Below are positions 12,529 to 23,625 of a stretch of DNA of 41,990 bases, piece after piece (within the stretch, counting starts at the first letter, position 1; each line of letters starts with the position of its first letter). Source of the stretch: a virus. Both the position numbers and the translations under genes were made by a program. Location of the stretch: positions 1 to 41,990 of the IMG/VR virus record IMGVR_UViG_3300045988_092374; one strand, given 5' to 3'. The notes under the pieces were generated by a model, which searched no databases, was not told the DNA's origin, and saw only the letters and a program-made list of their open reading frames with translations.

Positions 12529-12666
12529 ATGAAAGATTGTGAAGTTTGCATTTGTCCAGATTGCCAGAAGCAGGACGAATGCGAAATTTGTAACAAGTGC
12601 TATACCTGCCCTGGAGAACACGCAAAAAGTGAATGCCCTTATGGTGGGTTTGAATCAGATAATTGA
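12529..12666 (+). CDS. Cys-rich 45-aa protein
   Basis: MKDCEVCICPDCQKQDECEICNKCYTCPGEHAKSECPYGGFESDN (11 Cys). Confidence 0.45.
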   Translation: MKDCEVCICPDCQKQDECEICNKCYTCPGEHAKSECPYGGFESDN

Positions 12667-12697
12667 CATTTTGTATAGTAGGCTGGTGATTGATTAT

Positions 12698-13195
12698 ATG
12701 ATAGAACAAATTAAACTATTTCCGGATGGAGAACAGAAAAATGTGAGATTATATGTGGAACATGATACCACAGTTGATAATTGGATTAGGGAATATCATT
12801 ATCTCCACTCCGTCCCAGCTGGTGCCATATTAAGATTTTGTTTTAAAAATGCATCAGAAGAAATTCTTGGCTGCATGATGTGGGGGCGTCCCACAAGTAG
12901 AAAAATCAATCAAAAAAATATTTTAGAATTGACTAGAATGTACTTTGTAGATGATACTGAAGCATTTATTGAAAGTAAATGTTTAAGTATGGCACGTAAA
13001 TATATACGAAAGCATTGTCCAAACGTAAAAGGATTAATTGCATATTCTAGTACAGGCGCAGGACATGAAGGAATCGTATATCAAGCAGACAATTGGTACG
13101 CATTAGGTGGGCAAAAAGGTGGTAATTGGGAAAACCGAGAGCATCGTATTAATAGAGACTTGTCTACTAAAATAAGATGGACTCGAAGTCCATAA
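12698..13195 (+). CDS. GNAT-fold Mom-like protein (putative DNA adenine modification / anti-restriction)
   Basis: EYHYLHSVPAGA ... GCMMWGRP ... LELTRMY ... IAYSSTGAGHEGIVYQADNW fits the layout of proteins annotated as the Mom family. The segment is AT-rich. Confidence 0.45.
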   Translation: MIEQIKLFPDGEQKNVRLYVEHDTTVDNWIREYHYLHSVPAGAILRFCFKNASEEILGCMMWGRPTSRKINQKNILELTRMYFVDDTEAFIESKCLSMARKYIRKHCPNVKGLIAYSSTGAGHEGIVYQADNWYALGGQKGGNWENREHRINRDLSTKIRWTRSP

Positions 13196-14008: not shown

Positions 14009-14281
14009 ATGAAGCGTAACAGAGATAAAATAGAACTTGCACGGATGGGGGCCATCTTTTCCAAAGATGTAGATAAGTGCAGGAACCGGGTTAAAATAGG
14101 TGATGCGTTTACTGTAGCAGACCCAGCATGGAAAAATGAGCAGGGAAACGGAGTAAGGCCAATGATGCGTGGCCGAGTGACAGCAAAGTATCCCCATCTG
14201 GTGACACTGAACTGCGGGACATCCATTACATACGTGCAGATCCTAATGATGCAACGGAACGGTCGGAAATATATTGATTAA
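14009..14281 (+). CDS. Small Veg-like protein, paralogue 2
   Basis: ATG 14009 after GGGAGGGAG. RVKIGD ... GRVTAKYPHLVTL ... ITYVQIL. Confidence 0.5.
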   Translation: MKRNRDKIELARMGAIFSKDVDKCRNRVKIGDAFTVADPAWKNEQGNGVRPMMRGRVTAKYPHLVTLNCGTSITYVQILMMQRNGRKYID

Positions 14282-14709
14282 TGGGGGTGGTGCCAGTGGG
14301 AATTAAGATAACCAGGAAGCTGCTAGATGATTACCGGCGCCTAAAGCGGGAGATTCCTCTCCTGGAGCTGGAGCTGGTCGAGATGCTGCAGGGGGATAAT
14401 GGTTTTGACAACAGTACGATATTTGATTATCGGACCGGAGAAGCACGACCGCAGAGCGTTGTGGGATTTGACTGGAAGCTGCGAGGGCATCGCGAGAAGG
14501 TATTGGATGGGAAAAAGGATAAGGTCAAAGCGGTTGAAAAATGGATTGAGGCCATAGAGGACGGGCAAACACGATGTGTATTTAAGATGTTTTACATTAA
14601 TGGGATGACATGGGAGCGGATTGCGGACAAGACTGGATATAGTAAAAGTCCTGATTACCCACGGAAATTGATTAGAGACACATATTTGGAAAAGTGTAAA
14701 ATTAAATAA
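14281..14709 (+). CDS. Late-gene transcriptional regulator (ArpU/RinA/sigma region-4-like)
   Basis: 142 aa. The C-terminal RCVFKMFYINGMTWERIADKTGYS is a sigma-70 region-4-type HTH. It occupies the classic position upstream of the packaging genes. Confidence 0.6.
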   Translation: MGVVPVGIKITRKLLDDYRRLKREIPLLELELVEMLQGDNGFDNSTIFDYRTGEARPQSVVGFDWKLRGHREKVLDGKKDKVKAVEKWIEAIEDGQTRCVFKMFYINGMTWERIADKTGYSKSPDYPRKLIRDTYLEKCKIK

Positions 14710-14711
14710 AG

Positions 14712-14745
14712 TTATCCGTTTTATCCGCCTTATCCGTTGTAGAAT
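14712..14745 (+). promoter_or_regulatory. Candidate activator-dependent late promoter
   Basis: Three tandem 9-mers TTATCCGTT/TTATCCGCC/TTATCCGTT (14712-14738) are followed after 1 nt by TAGAAT (14740-14745). There is no -35 hexamer. Confidence 0.5.
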
Positions 14746-14751
14746 ACAATT

Positions 14752-15088
14752 AGGCCAAAAGGCTAAATGCCGGAGGCCACTCCCCATACGGCCGCCAGCG
14801 TGTAAAAGCCTGGTGGTCGATTAGAAGCCGACGTTCTTACCGCTTTCTTCATGGCTTCACAAATCGGATAGAAAACGGCGGTTAGGTGACACGAAAGGTC
14901 CCTTGGTCGATATCATACCAGTTGGCTGCTGTGCGGCCCGAAAGATATCCGCTTAGCCAGCCGCGGAGTGAGCTGGTACATACCGGGGACGACCCGGTAT
15001 TGTGTGGAGCATACCATCAACGGGAGATGGACAGGGGCACCCTGGGTTCCGGTTCGATTCCGGATGCGCCGCTTGTATCTGTTTTTTT
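14752..15088 (+). ncRNA. Structured non-coding late leader RNA ending in a tRNA-like cloverleaf (class unknown)
   Basis: GC-rich and non-coding. GNRA-capped hairpins at 14888-14900 and around 14939-14944, plus helix GGCTG/CAGCC (14924-28 with 14958-62). A four-way junction spans 15004-15072 and includes T-arm TCCGG/TTCGATT/CCGGA. T7 run at 15082-15088. Confidence 0.45.
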
Positions 15089-15116
15089 CTCCCCAAGACA
15101 TTTTCAGATACGGATT

Positions 15117-15148
15117 AGGCACTTGGCTTATGGCTGAGTGCCTTTTCT
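15117..15148 (+). terminator. Rho-independent terminator
   Basis: AGGCACT (15117-23) pairs with AGTGCCT (15137-43) and is followed by TTTTCT. Confidence 0.6.
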
Positions 15149-15243
15149 ATTCCTTTTTGGTATTTGATTAAATCGAACAAATGTTCTATACTGATTATAC
15201 AAAACGGCAGACAATAATATGGGAAGAATTTCCAGAGGGGATG

Positions 15244-15252
15244 TGGTATAAT
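15244..15252 (+). promoter_or_regulatory. Extended -10 promoter of the AT-rich island
   Basis: TGGTATAAT lies 29 nt upstream of ATG 15281. Confidence 0.45.
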
Positions 15253-15280
15253 ATAAAAAAATGTCGATGGGAGAAACAAT

Positions 15281-16462
15281 ATGATAGAAATACCAGATTG
15301 GCTAAAAAAAGATTATCTTCATGTTAATGCTCTTAAAAATATTTGTTCTGATAAAAATTTAAGGGTTTCTGAAAATAAAGATATCTTAATAGATCAAATT
15401 ATAGAGTATGCGGGGGAAAATAAAAACAGCAAGAATTATCAGGAGATATATCAGTGGCTACTATCTACTATGAGAGAAGGGAGTAAGGATTTATGCTACA
15501 GAAAAATATATACTGATGAGTTGGAAGTAGCTGCTACTGAAAAAAAAATATTATCTATTTACCCAACATGTAAAAATAAAAATATTTTTGAAACTACAGT
15601 AGAAGAAAATTATTCATTAATAGAGTACGAGTTAATTGGAGATCGTACTATACAAGAGGCGAAATTTACTTTTGCTAAAAAGGTTCTTGAAAAATTAGGA
15701 ACAAATGATTTGGGGACAGAGGAAATATATCCCGTATTTATAGATGTTTATTTTGAAGAAGGTTTTATTGTTTGTAGAACACAACCTAAAGCATTATTGT
15801 ATGAATATAGTAGTGACAAGCTTGTGAAAAAAGAGAGAAAAATCAACACAATTAAAGATGGAAATAATTTGACAAATAAAATCATAGATATTTTTGGCTT
15901 TGAATATGATAAAAAAAATTGCAAACAACGTGTAATGAAAATGTTATACGAGTTATATAAAGTGCATGGAGATACACCAGAGAGTGTAAAAAATAAGATA
16001 GGTAGTATGGAAAAGGATACTAAAAGCTATCTTATTACAATTTTTGAAAAGCTAAAATTAGATATAACTAATATACCAAAAGCATTTGAAGATTTAGGGA
16101 TATTTTTGGAAAAATATATTTCCATTGAATCGAATATGGAAAATGAATTTAAAGCTGATAGAGATGCATATATTATTAAAATAGCTGCTGATGATGCGTT
16201 ACAAATGACAAAAATCGATGCCGCCTCTGCAATAACAAAACCATTACAATGTACAGACATATTCTATGATAGTAAAAAATCTATTATGAATACGAAAGAG
16301 TGTAGAAAATTAAATTTGTGTTATAATAGAAAAAGAGGATATTTGGGTCCATTTTTGGTTCAACACGATGCGAGAGATGGGTTTGGTATGCTTAAGGTTA
16401 AATATTTTGCAGAGGAGGTGGACATTCAAAATGTTTTACAAACAGTTTTTAGAAATTACTGA
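15281..16462 (+). CDS. SAP-domain protein of unknown function (island gene A)
   Basis: 393 aa. The N-terminal LHVNALKNICSDKNLRVSENKDILIDQII fits the SAP helix-extended-helix motif. I cannot assign the remaining ~340 aa. The gene is very AT-rich. Confidence 0.7.
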   Translation: MIEIPDWLKKDYLHVNALKNICSDKNLRVSENKDILIDQIIEYAGENKNSKNYQEIYQWLLSTMREGSKDLCYRKIYTDELEVAATEKKILSIYPTCKNKNIFETTVEENYSLIEYELIGDRTIQEAKFTFAKKVLEKLGTNDLGTEEIYPVFIDVYFEEGFIVCRTQPKALLYEYSSDKLVKKERKINTIKDGNNLTNKIIDIFGFEYDKKNCKQRVMKMLYELYKVHGDTPESVKNKIGSMEKDTKSYLITIFEKLKLDITNIPKAFEDLGIFLEKYISIESNMENEFKADRDAYIIKIAADDALQMTKIDAASAITKPLQCTDIFYDSKKSIMNTKECRKLNLCYNRKRGYLGPFLVQHDARDGFGMLKVKYFAEEVDIQNVLQTVFRNY

Positions 16463-17513
16463 TGGCCTAAATGCGGACGTTGTCAAAGAATTCGATTTCT
16501 GGTTGGCAACTTTACCAGAAAAAGAAGCTAAGTCAATTACTATAAGCACAGTAGCGTCAAGATTAGGAATACAATATTCTATAGCTGACCTTTTACTAGA
16601 GTTTGCATTACGGAAGGGTATACTAAAAAGAGCATATATGCTTGTTTGCCCAAATGAAGAATGCCACCTGCCACATAGTATATTAGATGCAAATGAAGTG
16701 CGAAATATGCTGGGAAAGGAAGAGTATTGTCATAATTGCCAAGAAGAGTTTGTTGTTGATCTAACTTGTATTATAAATATATATCAACGAAATAAGAAGC
16801 CTGATGTGTCAGATAGAATAATTAGGGATGAAATAATTAAAAGATTAGGTTTTGGAAAAGATGGTTTTGAGAATGAAATAAATTTTAATATAGCTGATTC
16901 TTTGGGGGCTAATAAAAAAGAAGTATATAATTTGTATTATGCTCCTGATGAATCAGCATATAAAAGATTCAAAATAATGAAAGATAAACTTGATTGGAAT
17001 TATGGGAAGGATACCACAGCTCAAGGAAAAGCATTAGAGATTTTAGCACTAGACATATTTAACCAAATACAAGGAGTCAGGTGTACTAATGATGTTAAAA
17101 CGAAAACTAACCAATTTGATTGCACTTGCTTATGCGGGATAAAGACAATCTTTCCATCAGTATTTTCTTATTTAGCTCCATATTTTCTTATTGAATGTAA
17201 GAATGAACCTAAAAAGAAGCCTAATAATACATATTGCAATAAGTTACTTAGTATTATGGATACAAATGAAGCACAGGTGGGAATTGTTTTCGGAAGAATA
17301 AATGCAACGGAACCTTGCTTTGTTATCTCAAGGGAGCATTACTTAAAACATTCAGAATCAAGAAGGCAACAAATTATTTTAACGTTCTCCGATGATGATT
17401 GGAATTGTTTAATTGACAATAAGGTTAACCTTTTAGCATATTTAGAATATAAGATATTTCAAATAACATCAAATTCCCCAGATGCTTCATATGAAATGTT
17501 TATTAAAAAGTAA
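16431..17513 (+). CDS. wHTH / zinc-ribbon / Mrr-like PD-(D/E)xK nuclease (island gene B)
   Basis: ATG 16431 follows AGAGGAGG and overlaps gene A by 32 nt. Motifs: CPNEEC...CHNC, then GKALEILALDIF ... FDCTC ... LIECKN ... VGIVFGR (Mrr catalytic-domain layout). Confidence 0.65.
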   Translation: MFYKQFLEITDGLNADVVKEFDFWLATLPEKEAKSITISTVASRLGIQYSIADLLLEFALRKGILKRAYMLVCPNEECHLPHSILDANEVRNMLGKEEYCHNCQEEFVVDLTCIINIYQRNKKPDVSDRIIRDEIIKRLGFGKDGFENEINFNIADSLGANKKEVYNLYYAPDESAYKRFKIMKDKLDWNYGKDTTAQGKALEILALDIFNQIQGVRCTNDVKTKTNQFDCTCLCGIKTIFPSVFSYLAPYFLIECKNEPKKKPNNTYCNKLLSIMDTNEAQVGIVFGRINATEPCFVISREHYLKHSESRRQQIILTFSDDDWNCLIDNKVNLLAYLEYKIFQITSNSPDASYEMFIKK

Positions 17514-17514
17514 A

Positions 17515-17539
17515 GGGCCGCCCACCCGTGGCTCTTTTT
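17515..17539 (+). terminator. Terminator after the island
   Basis: GGGCCGC pairs with GTGGCTC (7 bp including 2 G-U) and is followed by TTTTT. Confidence 0.5.
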
Positions 17540-23311: not shown

Positions 23312-23381
23312 AGAGAAACGATGGCCCAACCCAATAAGTGGGGGTCAGGTACCGTTCCTCTTTAAAAGATATCTTATCTGT

Positions 23382-23410
23382 ATTATACGATATTATGCCC
23401 AAAATGTCAA
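23382..23410 (-). promoter_or_regulatory. Consensus promoter pointing back into the MuF toxin module
   Basis: On the minus strand: TTGACA, 17-nt spacer, TATAAT. Confidence 0.55.
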
Positions 23411-23444
23411 ATTAAGCATGTAATGGCTGGTGGTATTTTTAGTT

Positions 23445-23460
23445 GTTGCGATATCGCAAC
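23445..23460. repeat. 16-bp perfect palindrome GTTGCGATATCGCAAC (copy 1)
   Basis: The 20-nt GTTGCGATATCGYAACAG recurs at 40314-40331 with one mismatch. Confidence 0.7.
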
Positions 23461-23492
23461 AGATAGGAGGTGATCCGATTATCTCCCTTTGA

Positions 23493-23518
23493 GGCGCAGG
23501 GTAATGCGTCTTATTTTT
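23493..23518 (+). terminator. Rho-independent terminator inside the late operon
   Basis: GGCGCA pairs with TGCGTC and is followed by TTATTTTT. Confidence 0.5.
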
Positions 23519-23625
23519 GTGCCAAAACGCGACAAGGCCTAAAAAGGTGCGCGGCCGGAGACACCGATGACAATGGATTGAGCAGTAAGGAGTGACACTC
23601 CCAAAATGGAAAGGAGCTTAAAAGA

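Follow-up and report, generated by a model that had tools for sequence, protein, structure and literature searches.

We have analysed a 41,990-nucleotide (nt) stretch of viral DNA (IMG/VR record IMGVR_UViG_3300045988_092374, positions 1 to 41,990; "the window" below), a Firmicute-type prophage whose early genes lie on the plus strand. The subject of this report is the segment 14711-15148, which begins directly behind a putative late regulator gene (ltr) and in which a predicted promoter is followed by ~250 nt of non-coding RNA, a tRNA-like cloverleaf and an intrinsic terminator. The terminase genes lie further downstream, the small and the large subunit genes beginning at ~17556 and ~18011, respectively (PHROG). 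With moderate confidence we read 14711-15148 as the control and leader region of the late operon of this prophage, i.e. of its packaging, head, tail and lysis genes. The features of the segment, together with the regulator gene, are the following.

14281-14709, plus strand: ltr gene, predicted DUF1492/sigma-70-region-4-like late transcriptional activator of 142 amino acids (aa)
14712-18, 14721-27 and 14730-36, plus strand: three 7-nt direct repeats TTATCCG, read from the sequence and found by the repeat search (family D11)
14740-14745, plus strand: -10 box TAGAAT without a -35 box, read from the sequence
14753-14788, plus strand: hairpin A, with outer stem GGCC/GGCC (14753-56 with 14775-78), A-rich internal loop, inner stem GGC/GCC and C-rich tract 14779-88
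14789-14819, plus strand: hairpin B, stem of 10-11 base pairs (bp) with a GTGTAAAAG-type loop
14820-14882, plus strand: module C, with helix GAAGCC/GGCTTC (14824-29 with 14853-58) and a competing long-range helix (14827-30 with 14876-79)
14885-14902, plus strand: GNRA-capped hairpin GG-GAC-A-C[GAAA]G-GTC-CC, present in the sequence and in the minimum free energy (MFE) fold
14904-14962, plus strand: module D, with stem D1 (14904-07 with 14917-20) and stems D2 (14924-28 with 14958-62 and 14933-36 with 14949-52)
14980-15000, plus strand: hairpin E, 8 bp, 3-4 nt upstream of the tRNA-like element
15004-15072, plus strand: tRNA-derived cloverleaf of 69 nt forming a four-way junction
15004-11 with 15065-72, 15014-30, 15032-44 and 15048-64, plus strand: its acceptor, D-arm, short arm (3-nt loop) and T-arm (loop TTCGATT)
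15075-15111, plus strand: hairpin F, GTATCTG (15075-81) with CAGATAC (15105-11), enclosing the T7 run 15082-15088 and a CTCCCCAAGACAT loop
15117-15148, plus strand: intrinsic terminator, 12-bp stem (6 G-C pairs) with T-rich tail, listed by the terminator scan as 15117-15143 plus a T tract

The loci with an ltr homologue number 83 (cited below as L001 and so on), 43 of them taken from IMG/VR and 40 from GTDB genomes, and the hosts belong to the Lachnospiraceae (Enterocloster, Blautia, Lachnoclostridium, Hungatella). Some 50 distinct prophage loci from this family have a common layout, in which three repeats are followed by a -10 box with no -35 box, by hairpin A ~7 nt further on with its C-rich tract, by variable modules, hairpin E, a tRNA or a tRNA mimic, the terminator and finally the late genes.

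The regulator ORF (open reading frame) 14281-14709 scores just above the Pfam cut-off for DUF1492 (21.6 versus 21.5 bits), matches Sigma70_r4_2 weakly and hits PHROG 36, 'transcriptional regulator', at 4.5e-19; judged from these matches its product is an Ltr-type promoter activator. Nearby ORFs scanned against Pfam and PHROG, ORF 14281-14709 included, contain no Q-like antiterminator family. For RinA, LtrC and ArpU, three 7-nt repeats just distal to ltr are needed for activation, and LtrB, a member of the DUF1492 family, activates its terS promoter (PMC3753634). The TTATCCG repeats of the window agree with the published ones in place (right after the ltr stop codon), in number (3) and in length (7 nt). 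Because of this matching arrangement the late-promoter assignment is one of strong analogy, and the repeats are probably the Ltr binding site. Among relatives the repeat sequence varies with the regulator clade (TTATCCG, AGTTCG, AGGTCG, ATTTCG and others) at a constant position, and the -10 box is kept as TAGAAT, TATAAT or TATACT. Transcription would start at ~14752. The same leader and mimic are also found behind ORFs whose C-terminus is unlike DUF1492 (L048, L049, L070) and which we read by eye as sigma-region-4-type regulators; by this comparison of sequences the leader appears to be independent of the regulator family.

The structure of the leader was examined in 18 leaders of the window type, aligned to a structure of 55 pairs specified by hand. 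Pair cells are paired in 92.8% of cases, as opposed to 25-42% in slid controls. Thirteen pairs have changed on both sides, a number that none of 500 shuffles reaches (6.5 +/- 1.4); the sequences are related, so that shuffle statistics represent an upper bound on significance. Because shuffles overstate significance in such kin sequences, the argument is carried by the slid controls and by the number of distinct pair types. The G.U-rich helices of the leader fit the plus strand only. A preliminary description of the segment, made from the window sequence alone, had proposed covariation across homologous leaders as a check on its helices, and this check supports helices both in the leader and in the cloverleaf (92.6%, see below). 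On these alignments we regard the leader as a conserved, non-coding and highly structured RNA.

The individual modules contribute unequally to this picture. A covariance model of hairpin A finds exactly one match per locus at 55 loci, ~40-65 nt after ltr and on the ltr strand, with no further match in 490 kb. The outer stem of this hairpin is 97% paired, with exchanges of G-C to A-U (19/41) and of C-G to U-A (3); in the internal loop and the inner stem it is mainly the sequence that is conserved. We also considered hairpin A as a K-turn and rejected it, the internal-loop sequence being, by eye, off the consensus. In hairpin B 98.9% of the cells are paired, four pairs have changed on both sides, and the many G.U pairs would be A.C on the opposite strand. 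Module C has two competing helices, both of them 100% paired and both covarying via column 14829, where C/T changes together with G/A at both 14853 and 14877. Such a three-way covariation between mutually exclusive helices may indicate a conformational switch or may be an effect of the alignment. A further candidate helix in module C (14839-43 with 14878-82) was discarded, for it is paired in only 66% of the cells and its register differs between clades.

In module D the loops of the two hairpins form a pseudoknot (D1 loop 14910-14 with D2 loop 14944-48), which is 95% paired, has three pairs changed on both sides and occurs in five complementary variants, namely GATATC/GATATC, GGTGTC/GATACC, GATACC/GGTATC, TATGCC/GGCATA and AGTACC/GGTACT. 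The stem of hairpin E covaries as well (CCGGGG/CCCGG, GCCGGG/CCGGC, CCGGCG/GCCGG), with 91% of the cells paired and two pairs changed on both sides; in relatives that were aligned or read by eye this hairpin stands immediately before the tRNA or tRNA-like element, at a distance of 2-4 nt. The GNRA-capped hairpin is confined to close relatives and hence comes without covariation evidence. Besides the helices mentioned so far, the preliminary description had pointed out a number of short motifs, all of which are where it had located them: GAC-A-C[GAAA]G-GTC at 14888-14900, C[GAAA]G at 14939-14944, GGCTG/CAGCC at 14924-28/14958-62, CCGGG/CCCGG at 14983-97 as part of the longer, 8-bp hairpin E, the T7 run at 15082-15088 and the sequence TGGTCGAT, present twice, at 14814 and 14904.

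The cloverleaf 15004-15072 is the MFE fold of its own isolated sequence. Its class has at least 17 distinct sequences, and in their alignment the pair cells are paired in 92.6% of cases versus 36-50% in slid controls; 8 of the 23 pairs have changed on both sides, which 0 of 500 shuffles achieve. The four-way junction that had been drawn here on paper stands on its energy and on covariation. Its closing helix needs correction, since a length of 9 bp counts A15064 twice. The pair T15048-A15064 covaries (UA 13, CG 3, UG 1) and therefore belongs to the T-stem, which leaves a T-stem of 5 bp, an acceptor of 8 bp and T15012 as an unpaired 'U8'. Within the acceptor there is one A x G mismatch, with A-U in other variants. 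The element had also been called D-arm-less. In fact a D-arm is present (CCATC/AACGGGA/GATGG), its loop GG being invariant in all 17 variants, and the truncated arm is the one at the anticodon position. Here the stem CAGGG/CCCTG is invariant and encloses a loop of 3 nt in the window and of 5-6 nt of free sequence in relatives, hence of 3-6 nt across the class. The T-arm loop is invariant across the 17 variants and of the canonical TTCGAnT type. Measured against a canonical tRNA, then, the element has the acceptor, the D-arm GG and the T-arm, with covariation, and lacks the 7-nt anticodon loop. It encodes no CCA, and in most of the 17 variants the trailer starts with T after the discriminator. 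It has the layout of mascRNA, in which a longer non-coding RNA ends in a cloverleaf with an elbow and an acceptor/T coaxial stack. By its alignment we regard it as a tRNA-derived cloverleaf without an anticodon loop, and we refer to it as the mimic.

Detection programs do not recognize the mimic. ARAGORN reports neither a tRNA nor a tmRNA in the window, and RF00005 has no match at gathering score over 15004-15072; the best match within the tRNA clan, tRNA-Sec, runs end to end and stays below threshold (19.1 bits, gathering score 47). A 20-mer comprising the T-arm and three 5'-flanking bases is found on 28 IMG/VR contigs. Moreover, there is a second, unrelated anticodon-less class (L101, L074), whose acceptor and T-arm recur in a tRNA-Ile(TAT) at the sister locus L100. 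In this position, then, the anticodon loop has been lost more than once, each time with the acceptor/T half retained. Longer tRNA-like elements, in which acceptor and T-arm close 90-100 nt and which in some cases have two T-arm-like hairpins, were seen at L020:87-177, L033:3640-3760 and L100, and suggest that these phages make broader use of tRNA-derived RNAs.

In many relatives the place of the mimic, the tRNA slot, is taken by a real tRNA gene. ARAGORN calls a tRNA-Met(CAT) 200-850 nt downstream of ltr in many of them, and other occupants are tRNA-Ile(TAT), tRNA-Asn(GTT) and tRNAs with 8-nt anticodon loops. The closest comparison is with L001 and L003, whose Ltr proteins are 99% and 97% identical to that of the window and whose leader is 96% identical over 292 nt, from the ltr stop codon to window position 15001; both have a tRNA-Met exactly at the position of the window cloverleaf. 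The CAT tRNAs of the slot are initiator-like, with a 1x72 mismatch in most, namely in 8 of 15 distinct sequences (by ARAGORN ends; one 75-nt call, in L016, was re-read by hand with the same result), A11 in 14 of the 15 and GGG:CCC at the foot of the anticodon stem in many. Several of them have deviant anticodon loops, with C33 or with U/G at 37. Slot tRNAs with anticodon loops of 8-9 nt were observed in L032:3444-3616, L033, L034, L041 and L042 (ARAGORN 'cccc'/'ccca'; loop AAACCCCCU or UAAUCCCMCU); these may serve in quadruplet decoding or frameshift suppression, or be additional mimics without a decoding role.

Among 41 distinct sequences the stretch that starts with the 5' hairpin and ends with the tRNA or mimic measures ~170 to ~830 nt (~75 nt being tRNA), and this variation is modular. 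Hairpin A and the terminator alone are found in L078, L093, L035/L090 and L077. Tandem H-type pseudoknots, or a module of ~200 nt that is foreign to the window, occur in L005/7/9, L037, L041/42 and L045/70. The ~200-nt module reads 'GGTGAACCC...GGGAGACGTCCC' in L005 and L045; in L005:3620-3880, L007, L009, L045 and L070 it is conserved as GGTGAACCCnCCGC..GGGGGAACCG..GAACATGGGAGACGTCCCTGGG..GAGGGG and followed by an H-type pseudoknot (GGTCAAAAAGTTACCCTTAATTGACC...AGGG), a type of which L041 and L042 carry tandem copies. The module, as represented in the L005 group, has no Rfam match. In L004 (1204-1854), L012 and L043 a gene for an HNH endonuclease (PHROG 374, 1e-67) sits within the leader, where it extends from the hairpin B loop to the 3' part of module D and replaces ~145 nt of structured RNA; hairpins A and E remain intact, along with the terminator and the tRNA or mimic. 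The constant parts of the layout are the promoter, hairpin A with its C-rich tract, and the terminator; the tRNA or mimic and hairpin E are very frequent, and the middle modules are accessory.

An intrinsic terminator stands between hairpin A and the first late ORF with a ribosome-binding site in 47 of 52 distinct loci; the five exceptions are HNH-gene inserts and two spurious GC-rich ORFs inside the leader. Its distance from hairpin A is 49-860 nt among the relatives. The preliminary description had seen here a T7 run followed by a terminator, and the terminator at 15117-15148 is indeed found. The T7 run, considered as a separate terminator, was rejected, since it sits in the loop of hairpin F and since the covarying acceptor stem speaks against the terminator-like call at 15061-15081. 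Hairpin F itself has a stem longer by one compensating G-C pair in L005/L067, and similar stem-loops (CTCC..AGACAT) were read before the terminator in L030, L073, L078 and L089.

Beyond the terminator the window carries an AT-rich island (15164-17539, 27-32% GC versus ~48% around it) that has a promoter-like site of its own at 15164-15192 and holds two ORFs on the same strand, the first of them beginning ~130 nt past the terminator.

15281-16462, plus strand: island ORF of 393 aa
16368-17513, plus strand: island ORF of 381 aa

Neither ORF has a convincing Pfam, PHROG or PADLOC assignment, integrase families included. The island start is common to L004, L005 and L067, and other phages have different cargo after the tRNA slot. 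Late transcripts of the window must also cross this 2.3-kb island and a hairpin with a T5 run at 17515-17539, just before terS, which the terminator scan does not list and which is readable in the sequence, as the preliminary description had it. Downstream of the leader terminator many relatives (L013:3740-3860, L016:2770-2840, L093, L035/L090) have a GC-rich hairpin CCCGGnnnTGAAACnnnnnnCCGGG and then CCTCC; being anti-Shine-Dalgarno-like, CCTCC could mask the GGAGG of the first late gene. This hairpin type and CCTCC are missing from the window, where the island occupies the place. One more terminator-like hairpin on the plus strand (23490-23513) was noted in an AT-rich intergenic gap of the late operon (23312-23625), whose minus strand carries a perfect match to the sigma-70 consensus (TTGACA-17-TATAAT, 23410-23382).

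Searches against known families gave no assignment for the leader or the mimic. Rfam, run at gathering score on the window together with 20 relatives and at E<=10 and E<=5 on the region together with 10 relatives, returns only real tRNAs and noise; the proposed scan for tRNA, tmRNA and phage RNAs accordingly yields no family at threshold. The suggested kinship with GOLLD (RF01998) or ROOL (RF03087) is not borne out, neither model matching the window and 20 relatives at gathering score or the region at E<=10 or E<=5. No tmRNA was found in the window by ARAGORN or Rfam (RF00023), no tag reading frame is present, and the acceptor is closed locally. YrlA and EAR have no Rfam match at permissive thresholds. 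A T-box was considered on account of a UGGU in the leader and rejected, given that RF00230 is unmatched at E<=10 and that the tRNA slot stands between leader and terminator, which therefore do not overlap. As to coding, there are stop-free stretches in all six frames; their frame and extent differ between relatives and they run through the tRNA slot and the terminator. Since these stretches shift between relatives, there is no conserved ORF. The view of a non-coding late leader starting from a late promoter just after the regulator ORF is in agreement with this outcome, and the search for a conserved protein-coding signal in the interval, through which that view might have failed, found none. 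Among deposited phages blastn of the region gives one match of 58 nt, in an unannotated faecal contig, and tblastn with the Ltr protein finds no relative among 50,697 deposited phage records.

In a full-text literature search no description of the leader or the mimic was found. A catalogue of ~10,000 candidate phage RNAs includes highly expressed RNAs of 64-86 nt in Lachnospiraceae and Blautia phages (PMC10690425, 2023); it may contain parts of the leader, its sequences being unavailable for comparison. Phage late leader/terminator modules with tRNA genes are known; new are a structured leader that is conserved and tRNA mimics without anticodon that arose recurrently.

Taken as a whole, we lean towards a late-operon leader with a checkpoint and a tRNA-mimic handle. 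According to this proposal the DUF1492-type activator would bind the three TTATCCG repeats and fire the -35-less promoter at ~14752. The transcript would consist of the 5'-terminal hairpin A, the mosaic modules B-D, hairpin E, the cloverleaf and a terminator ahead of all late genes. The mimic would serve as a processing handle for RNase P and RNase Z, because it keeps just those parts that are read by RNase P, RNase Z and the CCA-adding enzyme (acceptor, T-arm, D/T elbow and a CCA-less, U-rich trailer) and nothing for decoding. The products of cleavage would be a tRNA-like RNA of ~70 nt and a leader RNA of ~250 nt with a protective hairpin, A or E, at either end; the cleaved leader would start with hairpin A and end 3-4 nt past hairpin E. 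A hairpin at both ends is the usual design of a stable bacterial RNA.

The terminator would act as the checkpoint, the late genes being reached only by polymerases that read through 15117-15148 and 17515-17539. A terminator placed after the promoter makes sense, we infer, only with regulated or processive read-through, and antitermination is here predicted from the layout. An attenuator based on alternative pairing is unlikely because of the variable distance (49-860 nt) between hairpin A and the terminator. Hairpin A with its C-rich tract is the best candidate for a processive read-through signal of the put or nut kind. Both the cleavage by RNase P and RNase Z and the aid of hairpin A to read-through are predictions. 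A more far-reaching version, which we put forward tentatively and would not call likely, sees an undescribed family of modular late-leader RNAs in which the 5' hairpin and C tract confer terminator resistance without an antiterminator protein, and in which initiator and other tRNAs of the slot repeatedly became anticodon-less mimics, used either as handles for RNase P/Z or as decoys to divert host enzymes from the acceptor end of tRNAs.

Several observations weigh against the proposal of a late-operon leader. Apart from the kinship of the aligned sequences, which limits the shuffle statistics, single-sequence folding is only weakly better than that of shuffles (z = -1.97 for the plus strand, -1.23 for the minus strand), and on the alignment data module C admits more than one architecture. 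Hairpin A combines high sequence conservation with only two covarying pairs and could be a DNA-level or protein-binding element or a plain 5' stabiliser. Where the HNH gene stands in place of the 3' part of module B to module D, the middle modules are evidently dispensable, and so is the processing handle, given that a tRNA or mimic is absent in L014, L035, L077, L078, L093 and L098. Finally, staphylococcal and enterococcal Ltr alone sufficed for terS expression (PMC3753634), a result that fits an RNA-only mechanism and is equally compatible with leaky terminators.

An alternative that we consider possible, if on balance unlikely, is a trans-acting RNA cassette. In this scenario the main product is an abundant short late transcript, and the terminator simply ends the RNA gene. 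Its exchangeable modules and the mimic would act in trans, for example by regulating host genes or, as decoys or sponges, by drawing off host defence or toxin enzymes that target tRNAs through their acceptor/T half or CCA end. Mosaic modules that swap between phages in the manner of accessory cargo would fit such a cassette, as would the occurrence of the same leader with different regulator families and the frequency of deviant anticodon loops (C33, U/G37) in the 'real' slot tRNAs; the variety of slot tRNAs (initiator-like, Ile-TAT, Asn-GTT, 8-nt-loop) together with at least two independent anticodon-less mimics is the turnover expected of counter-defence genes. However, no linked defence or toxin gene was identified, the island ORFs have no PADLOC or Pfam assignment, the cargo downstream of the mimic differs between phages, and the scenario leaves unexplained why promoter, hairpin A and terminator are kept where modules and tRNA are absent. 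A passive arrangement, with hairpin A as a 5' stabiliser against RNase J-type decay, a leaky terminator, the slot as a tolerated insertion site for morons and modules that merely hitch-hike, is in our view distinctly unlikely. 5'-terminal stem-loops are an established means of mRNA stabilisation in Firmicutes, and hairpin A would begin 1-2 nt from the presumed start; middle modules and tRNA are dispensable in some phages, and cargo islands adjoin the slot. Against this, the internal loop and flanks of hairpin A are conserved far beyond the need of a stability hairpin, compensatory changes in the modules point to selection for structure, and the post-promoter terminator is kept in 47 of 52 loci.

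Little credence can be given to an element acting at the DNA level, be it a packaging site or a tRNA-like target at which cargo islands attach or recombine. A two-gene, AT-rich island does lie ~130 nt past the terminator, the cargo after the slot differs by phage and breakpoints of mosaicism coincide with module borders; yet the repeat search finds no direct repeat of the mimic 3' end flanking the island, the island ORFs belong to no Pfam or PHROG family, integrase included, and the G.U pairs and strand-specific covariation point to RNA. We attach very little weight to the possibility that the cloverleaf is a working non-canonical tRNA or translation-factor mimic, aminoacylated and acting on the ribosome like tmRNA or a viral tRNA-like structure. 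The acceptor, D/T elbow and T-loop are intact, and a possible G-1:C73 pair in the window and a G3.U70 in L006, both read by eye, resemble the identity elements of tRNA-His and tRNA-Ala. But an anticodon loop is lacking (3-6 nt of free sequence), the acceptor end (-1:73, 1:72) varies and is often unpaired, so that there is no single conserved identity set, and neither a tmRNA or tRNA call nor a tag reading frame is obtained. Hardly credible at all, finally, is a decaying tRNA pseudogene behind a neutral spacer. This idea would account for the failure of tRNA detectors and for the real tRNAs that the slot holds elsewhere. It could not account for 17 distinct variants in which compensatory changes maintain all four stems, the D-loop GG and the T-loop are invariant and variation is confined to the short loop, nor for the presence of the mimic with several different leaders, regulators and downstream cargos, nor for the covariation of the leader helices.

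Two other parts of the window deserve mention. At 1-45 the window edge truncates a tRNA gene, of which the 3' part remains (RF00005, 32.4 bits), and adjoining it on the minus strand lies an ORF of 372 aa (206-1324) that is, judged from its position, probably an integrase. Fragment and putative integrase would mark the prophage's own attachment site at a host tRNA, a site that has nothing to do with the internal tRNA mimic. ORF 12539-13195, which precedes the late regulator, contains a Mom-family domain (Pfam PF25680, 1e-21), which suggests a function in DNA modification.

To our knowledge, what has been described of late-gene control for temperate phages of Gram-positive gut bacteria ends with the Ltr activators. 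At the present locus a conserved RNA layer, consisting of the structured leader, the tRNA slot and an obligatory terminator, separates the activator-dependent promoter from the packaging genes, and it offers a concrete candidate for processive antitermination in such phages. The natural series of initiator-like and Ile tRNAs on the one hand and anticodon-less derivatives on the other, all in one slot, can reveal a non-decoding role of the acceptor/T half. The RNA family lies outside Rfam and is nevertheless common in human-gut Lachnospiraceae prophages.

Comparable elements exist in several known systems. The tRNA-like domains of tmRNA and YrlA resemble the mimic in combining a T-arm and acceptor mimic without a decoding anticodon; the acceptor strands of the window element, however, are local, there is neither a tag ORF nor a Ro/Rsr gene, and Rfam and ARAGORN give no match. 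GOLLD and ROOL are likewise found in prophages next to tRNAs, with complex pseudoknotted folds and in Firmicute hosts, whereas the window RNA is much shorter, modular, unmatched by either model and fixed in its place after the late promoter. The mascRNA of MALAT1 and MEN-beta and the 'species 1/2' RNAs of T4 share with the mimic intact acceptor, T and D arms next to a degenerate anticodon arm, a position at the 3' end of a longer non-coding RNA, and co-transcription with tRNAs or their replacement. These belong to eukaryotic nuclear long non-coding RNAs or to the tRNA cluster of a lytic coliphage and are not homologous, and cleavage in the window is a prediction.

With HK022 put, lambda nut and B. 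subtilis EAR the leader has in common a conserved stem-loop close to the promoter, followed by terminators at variable distance. It differs from them in lacking a sequence or Rfam match, in the shape of hairpin A (a single two-tier hairpin as opposed to the two-stem put fold) and in that its function is predicted. Closer in gene content are the Ltr-dependent terS promoters (RinA, ArpU, LtrA-C; PMC3753634), which likewise have three 7-nt repeats after the ltr stop codon, a late-operon promoter and a regulator of the DUF1492 family. In those systems the terminator precedes the terS promoter, and neither a structured leader nor a tRNA slot nor a post-promoter terminator is reported (PMC3753634); here 250-860 nt of structured RNA and a terminator separate the promoter from terS. 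By this analogy the window locus would extend the Ltr-type late promoter of staphylococcal, enterococcal and streptococcal phages.

The parallel with lambda PR'-6S-tR' and with the Stx phages that the preliminary description had drawn is strengthened by the real tRNA genes in the slot of relatives and by the terminator in 47 of 52 loci. As in lambda PR'-qut-6S RNA-tR', the late regulator gene lies directly upstream and a late promoter gives rise to a short non-coding transcript that meets an intrinsic terminator before the late genes, and as in Stx phages tRNA genes or cargo stand, in the relatives, between the late promoter and the late genes. In contrast to lambda, the regulator is an Ltr/DUF1492 activator in place of a Q protein, the leader is more structured and modular, the host is a Gram-positive member of the Lachnospiraceae, and antitermination is a prediction from the layout. 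With these differences in mind, the arrangement may by analogy be viewed as a Gram-positive counterpart of lambda PR'-6S-tR'.

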